This document shows, one piece after another, positions 26,752 through 36,577 of a stretch of 64,000 bases of DNA. The notes beneath the pieces are model-generated. The model was given only the letters and a program-made list of their open reading frames with translations, searched no databases and had not been told where the DNA came from. The DNA is from a virus, in IMG/VR virus record IMGVR_UViG_3300028920_000037, positions 64,001 through 128,000 of that record; one strand, given 5' to 3'. The translations under genes and the position numbers were made by a program. Every line of letters starts with the position of its first letter. Position 1 is the stretch's first letter.

Positions 26752-27241
26752 CATGAAGCACAAGTTCAGGTTTCCTGTCGGTGACTGGTCGGGTGACGGT
26801 CATGGTAAGTGTGAATGGTTTCAAGTTCGAAGCAACCAACCTGTCGAGAAATGGCGTGAGGCGTACTTTGCATCATTGATCAAATTCAATGAACACGACA
26901 TCGCACCTGATAGTCACCACAATGGCAGGAAGGATAGAGGCTGGCCTCTGCACAAGATGCGTGAGCTCGTTGGTTTCAAATTTCCAAATACCGATTATGA
27001 CTGGCAGTATGACCAGCAAAGGGGAGAAAAGATCGAAGTCATACAAGATATTCCAAGGGTTGGATTTCCGGATCCGAAGGACGCCGTAGGGTACACGCTC
27101 GCGTTCTGCCAGGCGTCTGATTCGTCGCTGAAGTTCGAGATCATTGAAAAAGAAACTGAGATGTTTCAGTTCTACGGTTTCGACGAGCAGGAAAGGCACA
27201 TCGGTCACATCGGTTACGAAATCTTCATGGATGGTTGGTGA
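26744..27241 (+). CDS. hypothetical protein
   Basis: GDWSGDGHG motif. Overlapping start. Confidence 0.65.
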   Translation: MSSMKHKFRFPVGDWSGDGHGKCEWFQVRSNQPVEKWREAYFASLIKFNEHDIAPDSHHNGRKDRGWPLHKMRELVGFKFPNTDYDWQYDQQRGEKIEVIQDIPRVGFPDPKDAVGYTLAFCQASDSSLKFEIIEKETEMFQFYGFDEQERHIGHIGYEIFMDGW

Positions 27242-27310
27242 TGAATTCCGTGTCATATGCGTGTACAATCGTCAGTCCACAGGAGATATTGAAGATCTGC
27301 GGAGGTACAC

Positions 27311-27532
27311 ATGAAAGCAACGGCTGAATTCACGATCATCGAGCTAGAGCCAGGTACGTATTTTTCAGGATACGTCGGTACGTTGCCTCTTACGATTGAG
27401 TGGGCAAGCGTCGGTAACCCGCTGCTTGCGACAAGAGCACAACCAGGGTCGCTCGATGCTATTAAGGAAATGTTTCCGCATGCAAGGTACATGAGGGTCG
27501 AGGCAACCGCAGAGTGCGAGTACTATGAGTGA
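27311..27532 (+). CDS. hypothetical protein
   Basis: GGAGG RBS. Overlaps the dnaE start. Confidence 0.55.
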   Translation: MKATAEFTIIELEPGTYFSGYVGTLPLTIEWASVGNPLLATRAQPGSLDAIKEMFPHARYMRVEATAECEYYE

Positions 27533-29792
27533 GAAAACAATCAAGCGTGGTGCTCGAGTTGTCGATCCTGAATGCGTTTTACCGAAACGATTTGTTTCGC
27601 TTCATAACCATAGTGGATTTTCCACATATGATGGTTTGGGACCTCCGGAAGCTCACTTTGATTTTTGTATGGAAAATGGCTTAGATGCTCATGCCATTAC
27701 GGATCATGGCCATATGAATGGGTATGCAGCATCTCAATTGTACTATGAGAAGCTTAAGGATCAAGGGAGAGATTTTAAGTTCATACCTGGATGTGAATTT
27801 TATGTCCATCCTGACCTCGATGACTGGGCTCGCTACAGAGCACAGGAAGAGCAGAACAAGGAAGAGCGCAAGAAGGCTGAGCGTGCTGCGAGGAAACGTG
27901 GTGATGCTCCTGATAACGATGTTGACAATGCAAATGCATTGACAGTTGAGAACGAAGAGGCGTCTAAGACCAATAAGTACCGTGACCCATTGAAGCGCCG
28001 CCATCACCTTGTGGTGCTGCCTAAGAACACAGCAGGCCTCAAGAAAATCTTTTCACTGGTCTCCTATGGCTACTTGGATGGGTTTTATCGGTTCCCTAGG
28101 ATTGACATCAAGAGGATAAAGGCTGTCGCAGATGATGACATCATCCTCTCGTCGGCATGCATCGGTGGGCCCCTAGCATACGAGATCTTCGGTGTATTTG
28201 CAGACGCACAGTGGGATGAGATGGGCCCACACCTGCTCAACGACTCATCGAACTACGAAAAGGTGATGCGTGCCCTGGGCAACGCACACGACATGTACGC
28301 TGACTCTGTGGGTGTTCACAACATGTTCCTCGAGCTGCAGTTCAACAAGATGCCACAGCAGGACCTAGTAAACCTAGCGCTGCTCAGATACGCAGTCGCA
28401 AACGGCATACAGGATCAGCTCATCGTCACATGCGACGCCCACTATCCAGGACCAGACCTCTGGCGTCAGAGGATCATGTACAAGAAGCTTGGGTACCTGA
28501 ACTACACAGAGATCGATCCGTCGGCGATCCCTAAGTCGAAGGACGAGCTCGAGTGTGAACTCTATCCCAAAAATGCCCAGCAGCTCTGGGAGGAGTATGT
28601 GGGTTGTAAGGCTAGGTCGTCCGAGTACGAGGCGATCGAGGGCATCGATGAGATCGTCTGTGCCGCCGTAGAGCGTACGTACGACATCGCTCATACTGTC
28701 ATAGACGAGCTTCCTCCAGACAGAGAGGCAAAGTTTCCTCACATCAGTGCAGAGGGTGATAAGCCATTCAACTACCTCGTTCAGATGTGCAAGAAGGGCT
28801 TGAAGAAGCGTGGACACGCCCACAAGCTCGAATATGTTGATCGCCTAAAGGAAGAGCTCGGGGTCATGAAGGAGCTCGGAGTCTCGAGGTACTTCAACAC
28901 CCTTGCTGTCGTCATGCAGCTTGCACGTACGAAGGTGCTTACGGGACCGTGCAGAGGATCTGGTGGTGGTTCGCTCGTGAACTACTGCCTGTACATCACG
29001 GATGTCGATCCGATCAAGTACGACCTGTACTTCTCGAGGTTCATGTCGGTGTACCGAAAGGGTATGCCTGACGTTGACATCGACATCGATGATCGCGATA
29101 CTGTCCTTGACCTGTTGCGCAGCGAGTTTGGCTACACAAACGTCGTTCCGATCTCAAACTATAACCTCTTGAAGCTCAAGAGCCTGACAAAGGATGTGTG
29201 CAAGTTCTTTGGCGTGCCGTTCGAAGAGGTGAATGCCGCGATGCGTACCGTCGAGGACGACGTCAGGAAGTCGACCCTCAAGGAAGGCGACGACAAAAAC
29301 CTGTTTCAGCTGACGTTTGACGAGGCGATGGAACATTCGCCGAGTTATCGCGAGTTCATCGAAAAGCTTGCCGAAGACTTCCCAGAGGCCGTGGAGTCAA
29401 TCCAGGCGCTCTATAAAGAACAACGTTCGCTCGGACGCCATGCGGGTGGAGTCCTTGTTGTTGACGATCTGCGAGACAAGATGCCTCTCATTACCTCGGG
29501 TGGCGAACCACAGTCGCCGTGGGTCGAAGGCATGGCCGTAAAACATTTAGAAAAAATTGGTAATTTCATCAAATACGATTTATTGGGTCTACTTACTCTT
29601 CGTTTGATTAGGCGAACAATTGAATTAGTGCTTGAGAAACAGGTTCGAATTGATATTGACGGTCAAACGTTGTTTCTTGCGCCCGAGGAAAAGGTCGAAC
29701 TTACAGCAGGCATGTTCAAAAAAGCCAAAGATATCATAGAAGGTGATGAAATTGACGACGATTGGCTCAGAACTTACACAGAAGGTGCTTGA
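27525..29792 (+). CDS. dnaE: DNA polymerase III alpha, fragment 1 (PHP + palm), with a 50-aa degenerate Hint-like tail
   Basis: HNHS..STYDG, TDHG, GCE, CDAHY (PHP), then RGSGGGSL, MPDVDID, RHAGG, KYDLLGL. Confidence 0.92.
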   Translation: MSEKTIKRGARVVDPECVLPKRFVSLHNHSGFSTYDGLGPPEAHFDFCMENGLDAHAITDHGHMNGYAASQLYYEKLKDQGRDFKFIPGCEFYVHPDLDDWARYRAQEEQNKEERKKAERAARKRGDAPDNDVDNANALTVENEEASKTNKYRDPLKRRHHLVVLPKNTAGLKKIFSLVSYGYLDGFYRFPRIDIKRIKAVADDDIILSSACIGGPLAYEIFGVFADAQWDEMGPHLLNDSSNYEKVMRALGNAHDMYADSVGVHNMFLELQFNKMPQQDLVNLALLRYAVANGIQDQLIVTCDAHYPGPDLWRQRIMYKKLGYLNYTEIDPSAIPKSKDELECELYPKNAQQLWEEYVGCKARSSEYEAIEGIDEIVCAAVERTYDIAHTVIDELPPDREAKFPHISAEGDKPFNYLVQMCKKGLKKRGHAHKLEYVDRLKEELGVMKELGVSRYFNTLAVVMQLARTKVLTGPCRGSGGGSLVNYCLYITDVDPIKYDLYFSRFMSVYRKGMPDVDIDIDDRDTVLDLLRSEFGYTNVVPISNYNLLKLKSLTKDVCKFFGVPFEEVNAAMRTVEDDVRKSTLKEGDDKNLFQLTFDEAMEHSPSYREFIEKLAEDFPEAVESIQALYKEQRSLGRHAGGVLVVDDLRDKMPLITSGGEPQSPWVEGMAVKHLEKIGNFIKYDLLGLLTLRLIRRTIELVLEKQVRIDIDGQTLFLAPEEKVELTAGMFKKAKDIIEGDEIDDDWLRTYTEGA

Positions 29793-31707
29793 CGCCTCTA
29801 CACGGCACACATCTGCAAACGCGATCGCCCGCGAGCTTGGAACGTCTGCATATAAGGTGCGAAGGGTCCTGAGCGATAATAACGTAACGCTTAAGCAGCA
29901 CATCGATCCAAACGCGATTCCAGAACACGAACATGAGCATGTTGTTGAACTACTTCGTGGTGGTATGTCGCGTGTTGACGTTGCAAAGAGGTTCAATTCG
30001 ACCATCAATGCCGTCAAAAAGGTACAAGATACCACGGGGTTTCGCAAACGTGCCGTAAGTCAGCCCAAGCGTTCCAATCACCTCGACGGCAAAGAACGCC
30101 AGATTATTGTGATGTATGAGTCTGGTTGTTCCGTCAATGAGATCGTCACCGCGCTTACAACGACAAAGACGTTTTTGAGACACAAGTTTCAAGAGCTTGG
30201 CATTATGCCATCGGAACGTCGAAAAAGAAAGGCCTTGACGAAGGCGGAGATGCTGGAATGTATCTCCCTTCGTTTGACCACCAAGGAGTCAATCAAAAGG
30301 TTGAAGACTACTCCAGCGGTGTTTCGCAAGTTCAGAAAGAAGTACGAGTTGTCATTTAGATACGATCTTGCGCCTAAGGGCGAGGACTTAGATCGTCTTA
30401 TTGCGTTGTTCAAACTTGGTAAAACTGCGCATGAAATTGCTGTTGAGATTTCATCGACTCCATCCTTGGTTACACGAGCCGCACGTCAGCAAGGATTGAT
30501 TTTTCGTGATCGTGTCAAGCAGAGGAAGATCATTCCAGAACATAGGATCAAAGATTTTAAACGCTTGTTCGAACGTGGGGATACAAAGCAACAGCTCGCA
30601 ACCACGTTTAAAACGACGACATATGTTGTCAATGCGACTGTTGCCCACATTGGACTGTCATTTGATGCTCGTGATGTACAGATTGCGCGTAACAACGCAG
30701 TTGAGCGCATAAACACGTTCGAACATTTAAACGTCATTGATGCGTCAGCATACAGGACGATGTACGGCCTCGACATACACGTTGAGTGTCTCAAATGTGG
30801 CCATAAATGGTGGGACTGCTACAATACGCTTCGAAATGGATTCTGTAGAGGGTGTTCTGTTAGGAGCAAACCGGAACTGGAAATATCACAGTTCATCGAT
30901 TCGATCGAAGGTATCTCTGTCGTTCGAAACACTCGAACGATCATTTCACCGCTCGAACTCGATGTCTATGTACCTGAACTTAAGCTTGCTGTTGAGTTCA
31001 ACGGGATATACTGGCATTCTGAAAAGGCAGGTACACCAAATAACTACCACGATCAAAAGATGCGTCGATGTCTAGAAAAAGGCATCATGCTTCTGCAATT
31101 TTTTGAAGATGAATGGTGGCACAAGCGTAACATTGTTGAAAGCATGATTATGCATCGTTTGGGGCGCTCAACGCGACGCGTGTTTGCAAGAAAGACCAGT
31201 GTAGTTGAAGTTCATAGCAAACAAAGGCAGGAGTTTTTTGCTCGAAATCACATAGATGGAGACGTCCCAGCAACAAAGGCGTGGGGGCTTGAATTAGATG
31301 GTGAACTCGTATCTGTGATCAGCGTGCGGCAGCCAAAACACAAGAAATACAATAACGCGATTGAAATCGCACGTTTTGCGTCAGTGTTGGGAACCGTCGT
31401 ACCCGGTGCGCTCGGCAGGTTGATGGTGCGTGTTTGTGAATTTTCTAATGACATGAACATTTCACAGATTGTTACATATGTCGATCTACGCCACGGTACA
31501 GGTAGGGGATACGAAGGCGTTGGATTTAGGCTCGATCATCTGACACCACCCAGATTTTGGTGGACAGACTTCAAACAACGCTATGATAGGTTCAAGTTCA
31601 AGGCAGACAAGGAGAATAATCTGACGCAGGAACAGGTCGCTAAGACCGCTGGAGTATGGCGAATTTTTGGTTGTTCGAATGCTTTGTATATCATGGATGT
31701 GCGCTAG
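29743..31707 (+). mobile_element. homing-endonuclease-like gene (tandem HTHs + Zn ribbon + PD-(D/E)xK/Hef-like nuclease + GNAT-like tail)
   Basis: Multiple HTH repeats, CLKCG/CRGC, SKPE, ELDVYVPELKLAVEFNGIYWH, IARFAS. Overlaps the end of dnaE fragment 1. Confidence 0.78.
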
Positions 31708-31747
31708 TTAAAATAACACTGTGTGATATACCCCCAATCAGGAACGT

Positions 31748-32407
31748 TTGATGATCATACCGAGTGGAAAGAAGCACGTTGTCTGGGCACGTATAGCAAA
31801 GACGGGTTCTATGTCAACAGAAAGAACGCTCACTGCATTGGGTGTGTTTATGCCACTGCGAAACGTGCTTCGTCGCCGAGAGGCGTACAAACCAAACAAG
31901 CACATCCTTGTCGTTGATGACCTTGGAAAGCTAGCTGACGTCGGCGTGAACGTTGACGATTGCTTCATCTTTACGATCGTTCGATCGCCTTACTCACGTG
32001 CGATGTCAGCGTGGTGTGGACACACCTTCTTCAAGGAAAAGAACAGGGACAACTTTGCCGACTGCATCAGGAACCCTCCCCAGCGTCCAGACAAGGGCTA
32101 CAGAGAGCTTGGGAACAAGAAGGAAAAGGCTATCGAGGGCGCATGGAGACATTTCACAAAAACGATGTCGCAGTCGACGTCAATAGACGGTGCCTTACGC
32201 GTTGACAGGATCATCAAGCTCGAGGACTACAAGAACGGGCTGACTGCGGTGCTCGAAGAGCTAGGATTCAAGAAGATCAAGTTCTTCAAGGAGAACAAGA
32301 GTCGCTTTCGCAAGAAGCGTGACCTGAAGCCGGAAGAGATCAGGCTCATCAATGCAAACTATTCTGAAGACTTCGACAATTTCAAATACGAAAAGAAAGA
32401 GGGCTGA
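31748..32407 (+). CDS. sulfotransferase (Sulfotransfer_2-like)
   Basis: RIAKTGSMS (5'-PSB-like), FTIVRSPYSRAMSAW (3'-PB-like), IIKLED, YSEDF..FKY. Confidence 0.72.
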   Translation: MMIIPSGKKHVVWARIAKTGSMSTERTLTALGVFMPLRNVLRRREAYKPNKHILVVDDLGKLADVGVNVDDCFIFTIVRSPYSRAMSAWCGHTFFKEKNRDNFADCIRNPPQRPDKGYRELGNKKEKAIEGAWRHFTKTMSQSTSIDGALRVDRIIKLEDYKNGLTAVLEELGFKKIKFFKENKSRFRKKRDLKPEEIRLINANYSEDFDNFKYEKKEG

Positions 32408-32662
32408 CTGCATTGTACCCGGTGACATCGTCGGCGATGAAGATGTCACCGTTGGTCCTCGCTTGTTCCTTGTGCTTTCAGTCGTGCCACGTATGTGGAT
32501 GATCGATTTTACCGTGTTGAACCCTTTGGGTGGAACGCAGATATGCTGTTCAACGCCTTACAAAGGACACAAAGTCCTTTAGGGACTTACCCAACATTCC
32601 AGTTGCATACAACGCAACGCCTCAGCTGCTCAGTGGAACGTACATTACTGAAGATTAACACA

Positions 32663-32691
32663 GTGTAGATCGTGCCGTCGTATTGTAGGAT
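32663..32691 (+). promoter_or_regulatory. dedicated promoter for dnaE fragment 2 (leaderless)
   Basis: GTGTAG-N17-TAGGAT, with ATG at 32698. Confidence 0.65.
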
Positions 32692-32697
32692 AAACAC

Positions 32698-33624
32698 ATG
32701 GCTCTAGTAAAAGCTGTCAGGACGAGTACGCCCGACTTTCCTGAGATCCAGACGTTCTACAACGAACACCTTCATCCAGATGTGATCGACTTTGAAGACC
32801 AAGACGTCTACAAGTATGTTTTTCACGGCGGACGTTGGGCTGGCATCTTTCAGGCAACACAGAGGCCGACACAGAACTTCTTCGTCCAGTGCAAGCCGAC
32901 GACCGTAACAGACCTTGCAGCGATCACATCAATCTGGCGTCCGGGTCCACTCGCCGGCAAGATGCACGAGCTGTACGTCGATGCAAAGTTCAACAAACCG
33001 TACGATTGGGGACATCCACTCCTGAACGAGACACTGGCAGATACGTACGGTCTCTTGATCTTTCAGGAGCAGATCATGCTCCTTGCAAACAAGGTTGCTG
33101 GGTATGACATGGCCCAATGTGACCAGGTCCGCCGCGCAATCCTAAAGCGCTCTCTCGCGACAGGTGAAGCAGCAAAAAAGGAGGCAGCTGAGCTCGAGGA
33201 GAGCTTTACGGACGGCTGCGTGAAGAACGGTGTGCCCCTCACCGTTGCAAAGAAGCTCTATCAAAACATCCTTGCTTGGGGTGGGTACGGTTTCAATAAA
33301 AGTCTGTGTAGAGAGGATATGGTGATAGTTAATAACTATGAAACCAAACAACTCGATCAAGTTATTCCTGGCGACCAAGTCCTTACCCGAGACGAAGAGA
33401 GCGGACAAAACGTTTATACAGAGGTGCAAGAAGTCCATGACCATGGTACGCTTGAGCTCGTGGAGGTTGAACTAGACACAGGAGAAACGATCAGGTGTAC
33501 GTTGGATCACAAGTTCAGGACGAAGGAGACGGGAGAGATGCTTCCTCTATGGTTGATAGCGAAGCAGCAGTACAGCATCGTTGTAGACGATGCGGCAAAG
33601 AATTCAAATCAGATATCTGGCTGA
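32698..33624 (+). CDS. dnaE: DNA polymerase III alpha, fragment 2 (fingers) fused to split-intein N half (33301-33621)
   Basis: GIFQ, SIWRPGP, TYGLLIFQEQIM, GYGFNK|SLCRED...IRCTLDHKF (intein blocks A and B). Confidence 0.92.
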   Translation: MALVKAVRTSTPDFPEIQTFYNEHLHPDVIDFEDQDVYKYVFHGGRWAGIFQATQRPTQNFFVQCKPTTVTDLAAITSIWRPGPLAGKMHELYVDAKFNKPYDWGHPLLNETLADTYGLLIFQEQIMLLANKVAGYDMAQCDQVRRAILKRSLATGEAAKKEAAELEESFTDGCVKNGVPLTVAKKLYQNILAWGGYGFNKSLCREDMVIVNNYETKQLDQVIPGDQVLTRDEESGQNVYTEVQEVHDHGTLELVEVELDTGETIRCTLDHKFRTKETGEMLPLWLIAKQQYSIVVDDAAKNSNQISG

Positions 33625-34607
33625 ACAAACACGAAGCCAGGTGCAATGAACCCATCTACCTTCCTGAGGAAGAAGGAAAGAAGTGGGTTGCTTGCAAAAT
33701 CTGTGGTCACAAAGGCGTTCGCATTGGTAAACACCTGAAATCTGCGCACGGGCTGACGACCAAAGAATACACAGCACAATTCCCAGATGCTTTGACGTCA
33801 GCGCTCGATGAAATTCAGAAGATGAGTGAGGCGTGCAACTGGATTGATCGTGCCAAAGAAAACGGCGACGATCTCAGCGAGTATCGTCAACGAATGGGTG
33901 CTGCAGTTTCTCAGTCGATCATGTCAAATCCAGAAGAGCGAGCTCGTCGCTCGGTCCAGATGGCCGTGAACAACCAAACACCTGAAGCTCGTGAAAAGTC
34001 ACGTGTTACCGCAAAGAAGACATCTCAGCGTCAAGATATACTTGATCAACGTACACATAATCTTGCAAATTGGCGTGAAAAACATCCTGATGATTTTGCA
34101 AAGTGTACAAACGCGATGTTACAAACTAGTGTTTCATCACCAGAGCTTGAGTTGTTTTACATTATTGATGTTTTATCCTCAATGAAAGTTATTTGTTGTG
34201 ATGTGAAACGTCAACAAAGGATTCAAGATGTTAGTTTTACAGCAAGTAAAACACATATGTTTTGTGTTGACATTACCTGCATTTTTCAAAACGTATGTGT
34301 TCATATTGAGATTGATGGTATCCATCATTTTCAACAAATTGCAAGTTTTGATCTCAACAAACGACAACGACGTGATCAAGAATTTGAAAACTGGATCAAT
34401 GCTCGAAATGATGTGATGCTTGTTCGATTGTCATACGATACGTGGGAAACACGTCGCTGGCAAGAAAACAAAGAAAAGATGAGTAGGACATTTTTCTCCC
34501 AACCTGCTCTCGAGGCCCTCTTCAGCCTTCTCAAGAATCCTAAACCTGGCGTCCACTGTATCGGCCAGGCATACGGTGAAAGGAACCTGCTGTGTGGAAG
34601 CCAATAA
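33495..34607 (+). mobile_element. free-standing homing endonuclease between split-intein halves (C2H2 fingers + Vsr/DUF559-like nuclease)
   Basis: CRRCG..H, CKICG..HLKSAHG, SSPE, VDI, IEIDGIHH, RD. AT-rich 3' half. True start is probably near 33549. Confidence 0.75.
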
Positions 34608-34810
34608 GCTCAATTCCTAGGAAAAAGTGTTTCGTTTTAACGCGACGGATGCACATCATTACAGTAATTCCAGATGCTGACGGTTCATGGTGCATTCCAA
34701 CATCGTCGGGGTGGGAAGAGGTTTCAATTGAAAACGATCTTGCTTGGTCACCGTTTCCTGATATGGAAGAATTTGCATCATGCCTGAGCCTGTTGACAAA
34801 GAACAGTTGA
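34592..34810 (+). CDS. small hypothetical protein
   Basis: MWKPISS...W.PFP pattern typical of small phage proteins. Confidence 0.45.
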   Translation: MWKPISSIPRKKCFVLTRRMHIITVIPDADGSWCIPTSSGWEEVSIENDLAWSPFPDMEEFASCLSLLTKNS

Positions 34811-36108
34811 AGACATTCCTTGGCGCCCTCGGCGAGGCGATCGCAAAGGGTGATTTTCCTGATTCTGACATTGTGAATGACACGTCGTTGTCAGAGGAAG
34901 AATTTGAACGTATTCTAAAAGAACGTGTTGCGGCGAGGTACAACAGACCCCGCAAGAAGCTAACGATTGAAGAGATCGAACTTGCGGTTTTAAAAGGTCC
35001 ACAGCCTACAGGTAGGATCGTTTCGATCAGAGAGGTCGGCGAGCATCCTACCCGAGACCTATCTGTGGCGCATCCAGATCATCAGTTCTACCTTGCAAAC
35101 GGCGTGTTAACAAGCAACAGCCATGCCACGGGATACGCGATGATCTCGTACCAGTGTGCCTACCTCATGACGTATTACGAGGCGGAATGGCTGTGTTCAT
35201 ACCTCGAATCGATGAGCGGGAACGAGAACTCTCGCGCAAAGGCATTCGCGGAGGTCAGGTCACTCGGATACAACATCGTTCCGATCGACATCAATTCGGC
35301 ACGTGTAGGGTGGACAAGCATTCTCGGAAAGAAGTTCATGCCCTCGTTCACAACGTGCAAGGGAGTAGGTGCCGCTGCTGTCCAGGAGATCGTCGAGGCT
35401 CGCCCGTACGAGAAGTTCGAAGATGTTCTCTGGGACGACGAAGGAAATTGGCGTCACAGCAAGTTCAACAAGAGGGCGTTCGAGGCGTTGGTAAATATCG
35501 GAGCGTTTGCGAGCCTCGACTGTGTAGGTGAAGGTAAGCTCTTTGAATCGTACGCCCAGATGCACTGGGTTCTGTTTGGTTCTCACACGGCGAAGGTCAA
35601 GAAGAAGCGCAAAGGCGCTGAGGTCGAAGTGGAGAAGAAGTTCGACCATTTTGCCTGGATCAAACGTAATCCAACAATGGATCCTCACGAAGGTCGTAGG
35701 AACTTCTACGAGCTCATCAGGATGTCAAGCGGACAGATCGAACCTTGGACGCGGAGGGAGTGGGCTCTGAAGAACATCGAGCACTTCGGCTCACTCGACG
35801 TTCGAAGCCTCGTGGAGCCAAGCGTCCTTGAAGTCTTTGAAGAGAAGGGTCTACGTTCAATCGATGAGTACGAGGACGAGGACGTCTACTGGTTTTGCAT
35901 TGTCAAGGTCGAAAAGAAGACAACACGGAACGGTAAGAAGTACCTCCTGTTGTACGCCCAAGGACCTGCAGGGAAGGTCTTCAGGATATACGCCTGGGGG
36001 TGGAACGGAAAGCGTATAGTTGACCTCTACGCGGTCTGTTTTGCCGAACTTAAGAAGTCGGACTTTGGGTTCGCAACGAGCATGTACAAGCTGCGTGAGC
36101 TTGAGTAG
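34780..36108 (+). CDS. dnaE: split-intein C half (to 35118) fused to DNA polymerase III alpha fragment 3 (HhH + OB)
   Basis: GRIVSIREVGEHPTRDLSV..DHQFYLANGVLTSN|SHATGYAMISYQCAYL, DINS, KGVG, GAF. Confidence 0.92.
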   Translation: MPEPVDKEQLKTFLGALGEAIAKGDFPDSDIVNDTSLSEEEFERILKERVAARYNRPRKKLTIEEIELAVLKGPQPTGRIVSIREVGEHPTRDLSVAHPDHQFYLANGVLTSNSHATGYAMISYQCAYLMTYYEAEWLCSYLESMSGNENSRAKAFAEVRSLGYNIVPIDINSARVGWTSILGKKFMPSFTTCKGVGAAAVQEIVEARPYEKFEDVLWDDEGNWRHSKFNKRAFEALVNIGAFASLDCVGEGKLFESYAQMHWVLFGSHTAKVKKKRKGAEVEVEKKFDHFAWIKRNPTMDPHEGRRNFYELIRMSSGQIEPWTRREWALKNIEHFGSLDVRSLVEPSVLEVFEEKGLRSIDEYEDEDVYWFCIVKVEKKTTRNGKKYLLLYAQGPAGKVFRIYAWGWNGKRIVDLYAVCFAELKKSDFGFATSMYKLRELE

Positions 36109-36127
36109 GACGATACTTAACTCTGCC

Positions 36128-36373
36128 ATGGCAGACAAGAAGATCGTTAGGCTGACAGAAGGTCAGCTTCGCAACATCATCCGCAAGGTCCTCAATGAGG
36201 ACATCGTACAGTCGAACGACATCATTGACACGATCGATACGATCGAGGATACTGATACGCTCGTTGCAATCAACGACAAGATCAAAGCGAGGTATGGGTA
36301 CCTCATGCGCCTCTCACGTTCGCAGCGCCAAACGTCTCGCAAGCCTCCCCCTCCGCCTCAAAGGCGACGTTGA
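36128..36373 (+). CDS. hypothetical protein with LRxxIR N-terminus
   Basis: TACTTA at 36114. N-terminus MADKKIVRLTEGQLRNIIRKVLNE. Confidence 0.65.
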   Translation: MADKKIVRLTEGQLRNIIRKVLNEDIVQSNDIIDTIDTIEDTDTLVAINDKIKARYGYLMRLSRSQRQTSRKPPPPPQRRR

Positions 36374-36577
36374 GCAGGCGGACACGTCAGCACCTGCTTG
36401 ACTTCCTGGCGTTTGGACTACCAGGAGTTTTACTCCTGGGTCTGGATGGATACCTTTGGGTTGCGACGAACGCCGATGTCAACGGTCTTGTTGGGACGCT
36501 CATCTGTTCTTTGGCGTCCATTGGCATCTACTGCCTTGTTCTGCGTCACAGTTTGCAGTGGCGCATATTTAGGCATC

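Follow-up and report, generated by a model that had tools for sequence, protein, structure and literature searches.

A mobile cassette of split-intein segments interrupts a phage DnaE and probably docks its palm and fingers without splicing

The polymerase at the heart of this article comes in pieces. It is a DnaE (the alpha subunit of DNA polymerase III) encoded in 64,000 nucleotides of viral DNA, positions 64,001 to 128,000 of the IMG/VR virus record IMGVR_UViG_3300028920_000037, a stretch we call the window. Its dnaE gene consists of three co-linear open reading frames (ORFs) separated by two breaks. At the first break the upstream fragment ends in an added tail of 50 aa, the downstream fragment begins with an added head of 7-9 aa and a free-standing homing endonuclease gene lies between them. 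Our reading is that tail, endonuclease gene and head make up a mobile cassette whose protein parts are the segments that flank the split point of a split intein, and that these segments probably dock the palm of the polymerase onto its fingers non-covalently. The record around the window is 140 kb long with an estimated completeness of 39%, and therefore belongs to a very large phage. The only public sequencing run that contains the stretch is a marine sediment metagenome.

The three fragments together carry what a DnaE should have: a PHP domain, a palm with three catalytic Asp, fingers and an HhH domain, with the Pfam domains split over the fragments (Table 1). All three catalytic Asp are in fragment 1 (PDVDID at aa 515 and KYD at aa 683-685). 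The DnaE part of this fragment closes with ...KYDLLGLLTLRLIRRTIELVLEK, 21 residues past the third Asp, and the tail, QVRIDIDGQTLFLAPEEKVELTAGMFKKAKDIIEGDEIDDDWLRTYTEGA (aa 706-755, nt 29640-29789), is then added. Fragment 2 has the N terminus MALVKAVRTSTPDFPEIQTFYNEHLHPD, in which DnaE sequence follows directly on the head. The closest contiguous homolog, P0002, reads VELILERKTGRTPSFDEIKAYYNAHLHPD unbroken across the same site. Contiguous relatives such as this one have neither tail nor head, which are therefore an insertion and not a normal loop of the polymerase. An original prediction, made from the DNA letters alone, had described the polymerase sequence of fragment 1 as complete before the tail and fragment 2 as starting MALVKAVRT; everything it said about these sequences holds, and its suggested comparison with contiguous homologs comes out in its favor. 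It had also given fragment 2 a promoter of its own. That part is unconfirmed: a sigma-70 scan of the + strand upstream of fragment 2 finds no promoter, just an AGGA Shine-Dalgarno.

Where does the tail come from? Four independent tests, three on sequence and one on a predicted model, agree in showing it to be Hint-derived, Hint being the fold of inteins. The first comparison uses the N-terminal part (IntN, 97 positions) of a split intein that sits in relatives' DnaE at the site GIFQ|C, about 50 residues downstream of our break. When a profile of 40 tails is aligned to this IntN with hhalign, tail columns 8-46 fall on IntN positions 54-91 (96.8%, E 2.9e-10), which makes this intein the tail's nearest relative; the window's second intein is far more distant, its IntN giving a weak match (18%). 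A profile of seven tails run against all PDB sequences finds residues 63-110 of the NrdJ-1 intein (8ubs_A, E 1.3e-4) and the Hint domain of Sonic hedgehog (E 3e-3). Two rows at the top of that search, combined repetitive oligopeptide (CROP) repeats of clostridial toxins, were set aside as repeat artefacts. Run against 1.84 billion representative proteins, the same profile gives 387 matches at E<=1e-3. Nine of the ten best matches checked from this protein library, in phage portal, Pol A and helicase proteins, carry the Pfam domain Intein_splicing, and the genuine IntNs among the library matches share with the tails a terminal ...T.NRGY[VI].A.[DE]L.EDDD[IV]V motif. The last test is structural. 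The AlphaFold (AF2) model of the tail, built on a 43-row alignment, has a predicted local distance difference test (pLDDT) score of 87.2, with four strands and, at the end, a helix. Against 48,161 representative PDB chains it gives only 37 matches at Z>=2. The top 25 of these are without exception inteins or Hint domains, among them PI-PfuI at Z 5.6 and residues 49-99 of the 101 of Npu DnaE IntN at Z 4.9, as well as NrdJ-1, gp41-1, VidaL and hedgehog. Foldseek E-values are weak with so small a query, and all low root-mean-square-deviation matches are inteins. The end pattern of an N-intein that the original prediction noticed in the tail is thus a resemblance far beyond chance, and the Hint similarity it asked about is there in both sequence and structure searches.

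A few limits on this kinship should be stated. The Hint fold is present as one half only, about 45 + 8 residues in tail and head, against the roughly 135 of a mini-intein. An early reading of the tail as a block-A-like intein start, which arose because the two halves of a Hint domain look alike, was rejected when the alignments placed the tail on the block B half. Past the Hint-like core the tail has a lineage-specific extension, which in the alignment P0007, P0033 and P0075 have too, with a D.W[IL] motif. Neighbors in the ESM Atlas of the insert in P0076, a homolog with tail and head fused, include intein clusters; all score <0.9 and are leads only. Among cultured-phage records we found only distant DnaEs (<30% identity), with no tail, and a single-protein scan of viral contigs returned no match.

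The head is a short basic strand, the counterpart of the first strand of the C-terminal part (IntC) of a split intein. Across 85 fragment-2 homologs it reads M-[AKSP]-K-[IVL]-x-S-[IV]-x, followed by a linker of 3-12 residues that leads into the DnaE motif P[TS]F..[VI][KR].W[YF]; true IntCs of related DnaEs begin MKLVSSKKVG. Scored with a matrix of the IntC first strand, the heads as a group stand apart from the N termini of 1,591 other ORFs (Mann-Whitney p 3e-26), and 44% of them lie above the 95th percentile of that background. Tails and heads are also oppositely charged, with means of -2.9 for tails and +1.7 for the first 9 residues of heads. A passage in PMC11766414, citing Shah et al. 2013, describes how electrostatic attraction between acidic regions of IntN and basic regions of IntC starts split-intein assembly, and the polarity of tail and head is the same.

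What the pair lacks is the machinery to splice. QVRIDI, the start of the tail, directly follows ...IELVLEK, so there is no Cys, Ser or Thr at position 1 and no block A; the first 50 or so residues of IntN have no counterpart in the tail. In block B the TxxH motif is missing: LFLAPEE in the tail pairs with LICTSDH in the reference IntN, putting APEE opposite TSDH, and the position is degenerate across the 40 tails. On the other side, the head MALVKAVRT runs straight into DnaE, with no blocks F and G, no terminal Asn and no Cys, Ser or Thr at +1, where related true IntCs read MKLVSSKKVG.RHVYDIEV..HNF.ANG.VVHN|C. The absence of block A, the block B Thr and His, blocks F/G, the terminal Asn and a conserved +1 residue holds across the whole family of tails and heads. 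With nucleophile, blocks F/G, Asn and +1 residue gone and block B decayed, there should therefore be no trans-splicing, and the product stays as two chains. The original prediction had listed the losses of block A, the TxxH histidine and the terminal Asn correctly, and on the missing residues we regard splicing at the first break as excluded.

The arrangement of genes within the break is that of a fractured gene: adjacent ORFs of a host gene with a free-standing homing endonuclease gene between them. The gap is 2.9 kb long and holds two full genes. As the original prediction noted, the N part overlaps at its end with the endonuclease gene, which has its start codon and ribosome-binding site within the coding sequence of the tail in another frame. 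GC content drops from about 0.54 before the tail to 0.42 over it and stays low on through the endonuclease gene (0.42-0.47 for the endonuclease region vs 0.51-0.55 for the polymerase parts). The endonuclease itself is unusually long, with HTH_7-like repeats filling the first 320 or so of its 654 residues and the nuclease part after them. Adjoining it in the gap is a passenger gene of the sulfotransferase family, and no other locus examined has a sulfotransferase there.

Tail and head are not confined to one phage. Among the 120 best homologs of fragment 1, some 40 have their break at precisely this position, together with the tail; the rest are contiguous at the site or broken elsewhere by real inteins. 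The same tail and head occur in 7 distinct IMG/VR loci, always paired across a single break. Tail subfamilies share as little as 13-27% identity with one another, with the fold pattern kept. On a DnaE tree built from the 560 residues upstream of the break site, the module is scattered, its presence requiring 29 changes vs 31 with shuffled labels (three tail-bearing proteins, P0021, P0053 and P0058, were counted as contiguous, which leaves the scattered picture unaffected). One pair of homologs catches what looks like a transfer. P0073 has the module and P0104 does not; the first 500 aa of the two are 100% identical, and identity then falls through 92-84-76-88-58% towards the site. On sequence this is a co-conversion tract of the kind that homing leaves. 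Given the scattered distribution and this tract, the module behaves as a mobile cassette.

Gap length and content differ completely between loci, and the endonuclease family varies, from phrog_3339 in the window and L070 to a GIY-YIG-like enzyme in L004 and Vsr-like ones in L008 and L079. In L007 tail and head are kept around a gap of 275 bp (L007:8413-8690) that has no endonuclease gene; its sole content is an ORF of about 77 aa on the opposite strand. In P0076 and P0389 tail and head form an in-frame fusion that adds 55-75 residues to DnaE, and the P0389 fusion still retains the head's own Met. From these comparisons the module is widespread, horizontally mobile and kept where the endonuclease gene has been lost. 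None of this was in the original prediction, and the spread over the DnaE tree and the link to different endonuclease families are what is new here. Its view of a former split intein kept as a non-covalent module survives as far as intein origin and lost splicing residues go; its picture of a one-off decay does not, since we are dealing with a widespread mobile cassette.

We propose that, once translated, fragment 1 with its acidic tail and fragment 2 with its basic head would associate through these segments, as in the first step of split-intein assembly, and that the segments would fold into a half-Hint lobe. The palm in fragment 1 would be kept against the fingers in fragment 2 without a peptide bond between them. 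Fragments 2 and 3 would then be joined covalently by the canonical Ser1/Ser+1 split intein of the second break. A cassette of this kind would bring its own remedy for the break it causes, and its insertion site would need no nucleophile. We favor a function because the fold pattern and the charge complementarity are kept, the module outlasts its endonuclease gene, the break is near the active site and comparable tails in the split ribonucleotide reductase NrdA of phage Aeh1 are essential (PMC3045599).

Several points weigh against such a function. Binding of tail to head is our inference. Two predictions tip the balance neither way: that of a complex of the tail (aa 696-755) with the head (aa 1-32), run with separate alignments per chain, gave ipSAE values of 0.25 and 0.17, the mark being 0.32, and an AF2 model of the 892-aa P0076 fusion put the insert at pLDDT <50, from an input MAFFT alignment that misaligned tails and heads. 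A half-Hint lobe might not be stable without the other half of the fold. Through their native interface, palm and fingers might also come together without help, and recent horizontal spread, rather than selection, could explain part of the conservation. Then there is the window's own head. The original prediction saw a C-intein start in it, and for the heads as a family that resemblance stands, but this particular one is a modest match to the IntC first strand: on the matrix MALVKAV reaches -0.28, where the background has its median at -3.8 and its 95th percentile at 2.6, which makes it individually unremarkable. Finally, the original prediction suggested looking for relatives with an intact intein at the exact site of the first break. 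There is none among some 200 relatives, the closest intact intein being about 50 residues downstream. The module may have arisen when a full split intein decayed at the site, or else when an endonuclease gene inserted ectopically together with adjoining intein segments.

Could tail and head simply be idle? They might be leftovers of an intein riding with the endonuclease gene, a neutral scar, while palm and fingers assemble by their native interface. Hint origin and mobility fit hitchhiking equally well, the window's own head is a weak match, and many naturally split enzymes assemble without added tails. We nevertheless think this unlikely, since the fold pattern persists at the low identity between subfamilies and the tail model is confident, the opposite charges are preserved, the module has not been trimmed where the endonuclease gene is gone (L007 and the fusions P0076 and P0389) and the tails proved essential in the only precedent to have been tested (PMC3045599). 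A function of another sort is conceivable, in which the tail docks onto or regulates something else, be it another replisome subunit or the expression of the overlapping endonuclease gene. The start codon and ribosome-binding site buried in the tail coding sequence would suit such a role, as would the D.W[IL] helix added past the core in the window's lineage. That tail and head always occur together at one break, and as a single fused insertion in P0076 and P0389, makes this quite improbable, and the tail stays in L007 with no endonuclease gene to control.

Two further alternatives would restore a single polypeptide. The tail is homologous to Hint domains, and some atypical split inteins have very short fragments (PMC11766414), so fragments 1 and 2 might be joined by a still-active, very atypical split intein or some other ligation at the protein level. 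The missing parts already listed, from the position-1 nucleophile and block A through the degenerate block B to F/G, Asn and a conserved +1 residue, make that very improbable; the head, moreover, is 7-9 aa followed by a variable linker, and the fused forms keep the module as an insertion. The joining might instead happen in RNA, with the 2.9-kb gap an intron or bypassed, and group I introns with endonuclease genes do often occur in phage polymerase genes. A scan of 27000-36500 against Rfam at E<=1 gave no match and no group I or II intron, so that no intron is detectable in the gap by its sequence. Fragment 2 comes with an ATG and a Shine-Dalgarno of its own, the conservation of tail and head is in their protein sequence, and the gap holds two full genes and varies completely between loci. 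We give RNA-level joining the least credence of all. Docking by tail and head remains the reading we hold to be probable.

Table 1. Features of the interrupted dnaE region, in positions of the window
Feature	Position	Strand	Details
DnaE fragment 1	27525-29792	+	755 aa, PHP + palm; Pfam PHP E 3.4e-25, DNA_pol3_alpha E 1.8e-49
Tail core	29640-29753	+	aa 706-743, QVRIDI...GDEI; catalytically dead counterpart of C-terminal half of split IntN, block B hairpin to split point
C-terminal tail extension DDDWLRTYTEGA	29754-29789	+	Predicted helix, AF2 model residues 46-55
Free-standing homing endonuclease gene	29743-31707	+	654 aa; phrog_3339 homing endonuclease E 5.8e-75; Pfam HTH_7
Sulfotransferase-family passenger gene	31748-32407	+	219 aa; Pfam Sulfotransfer_2 E 2e-12; phrog_3347
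AGGA Shine-Dalgarno	32687-32690	+	7 nt before fragment 2 ATG
DnaE fragment 2	32698-33624	+	308 aa, fingers then genuine IntN; Pfam DNA_pol3_finger E 2.7e-33, weak Hint/Intein_splicing matches
Head MALVKAVRT	32698-32724	+	7-9 aa, short basic strand, counterpart of split IntC first strand; DnaE directly after
IntN of second intein	33301-33621	+	Ser1 directly after GYGFNK; CTLDH = block B
Second free-standing ORF	33495-34607	+	370 aa, between second-intein halves; zinc-finger (ROS_MUCR-like) region, putative nuclease
DnaE fragment 3	34780-36108	+	442 aa, IntC, remaining fingers, HhH; Pfam HHH_6
IntC core of second intein	35011-35118	+	GRIVSIREVG...GVLTSN, then Ser+1 (SHATGYA)

The second break, at 33301-35118, is occupied by a canonical split intein. 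Like the sulfotransferase gene, it lay outside the original prediction. It serves as an internal control, since by its sequence it is a split intein of the functional type, beside a first break that lacks its parts. Its penultimate residue is Ser, not His (...VLTSN|SH), and if the first ATG of fragment 3 is the real start, a 77-aa N-terminal extension (34780-35010) precedes the IntC core. More broadly, mobile elements have made a hot spot of this DnaE family. In L013, L017, L054, L061, L069, L070 and L079 there are at least five other interruption positions, which on the numbering of a 1201-aa reference lie near residues 211, 516, 755 (GIFQ|C), 815 (FS|C) and 895 (GFNK|S); some hold contiguous mini-inteins and others split ones. 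In each of the fragment-2 proteins P0163, P0177 and P0181, an N-terminal head of the kind described here is accompanied by two further elements, at GIFQ|C a contiguous mini-intein and at GFNK|S a split IntN, so that one polymerase can harbor all three kinds at once. In L016 (12394-12409), at reference residues 795-799, DnaE passes into another frame across a short overlap, possibly a frameshift or an assembly error.

How does this compare with what is known? Splicing-dead mutants of split inteins serve in the laboratory as high-affinity binding pairs. There, as we infer here, intein halves are used for purely non-covalent, tight association; the laboratory pairs are engineered point mutants of full-length halves, unlike the natural, truncated half-domain described above. 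Close natural relatives are the fractured-gene split inteins of the NrdJ-1, gp41-1 and DnaE loci (Dassa et al. 2009, PMC2677866). These also halve an essential replication gene, with an endonuclease gene in between that overlaps the end of the N part, and their N piece is likewise acidic and their C piece basic. The tail is homologous to the last 40 or so residues of such IntNs, NrdJ-1 being the best PDB sequence match. In contrast to those inteins, only the two segments that flank the split point remain here. The cyanobacterial split DnaE intein (Ssp/Npu) shares the host protein, and the tail model superposes on residues 49-99 of Npu DnaE IntN. As described in a passage of PMC2677866 citing Wu et al. 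1998, that intein occupies the site Y|CFNKSH, has all its parts and splices; the two genes that encode it are far apart without an endonuclease gene. Site, complete splicing and the lack of an intervening endonuclease gene all set it apart from the first break.

The precedent that matters most is NrdA-a/NrdA-b of phage Aeh1, where insertion of the mobile endonuclease gene mobE has likewise split an essential gene (Crona et al. 2011, PMC3045599). The tails of the Aeh1 proteins are essential for assembly, and the authors speculated, without sequence evidence, that they are degenerate split-intein remnants; the tails matched nothing in databases and were known from one phage (PMC3045599). Our tail and head share the hallmarks of that system, being extensions that are absent from contiguous homologs, flank an endonuclease insertion, differ in composition from their host gene and carry opposite charges. 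The polarity is reversed, the C-terminal tail of Aeh1 being basic and the N-terminal one acidic. Unlike Aeh1, the intein ancestry can here be demonstrated, and there is a large family with a predicted fold that moves between alleles; a docking role would follow by analogy. In the literature searched for dead, degenerate or half inteins we found no description of a natural non-splicing half-intein clasp.

Whether the tail-endonuclease-head unit deserves to be called a distinct class of mobile element, a 'splicing-free intein', is a question on which we are evenly balanced. Such an element would offset the break it makes in an essential gene with a half-Hint clasp, would need no nucleophile in its target and could enter positions closed to inteins. 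It would cycle between a split form with an endonuclease gene, a split form without one (L007) and a re-fused form (P0076 and P0389).

If the clasp works as we envisage, intein-type elements would have a third natural fate next to splicing and decay, in which the docking half is domesticated as a heterodimerisation module. The 2011 proposal that endonuclease-associated assembly tails descend from split inteins would gain sequence evidence, and the 'capture' half of a split intein would be seen to be able to act alone. For protein engineers, the family would amount to a large natural library of tiny binding pairs (about 45 aa + 8 aa), probably orthogonal. And for the phage itself, it would explain how an essential polymerase tolerates a break 21 residues from a catalytic Asp.

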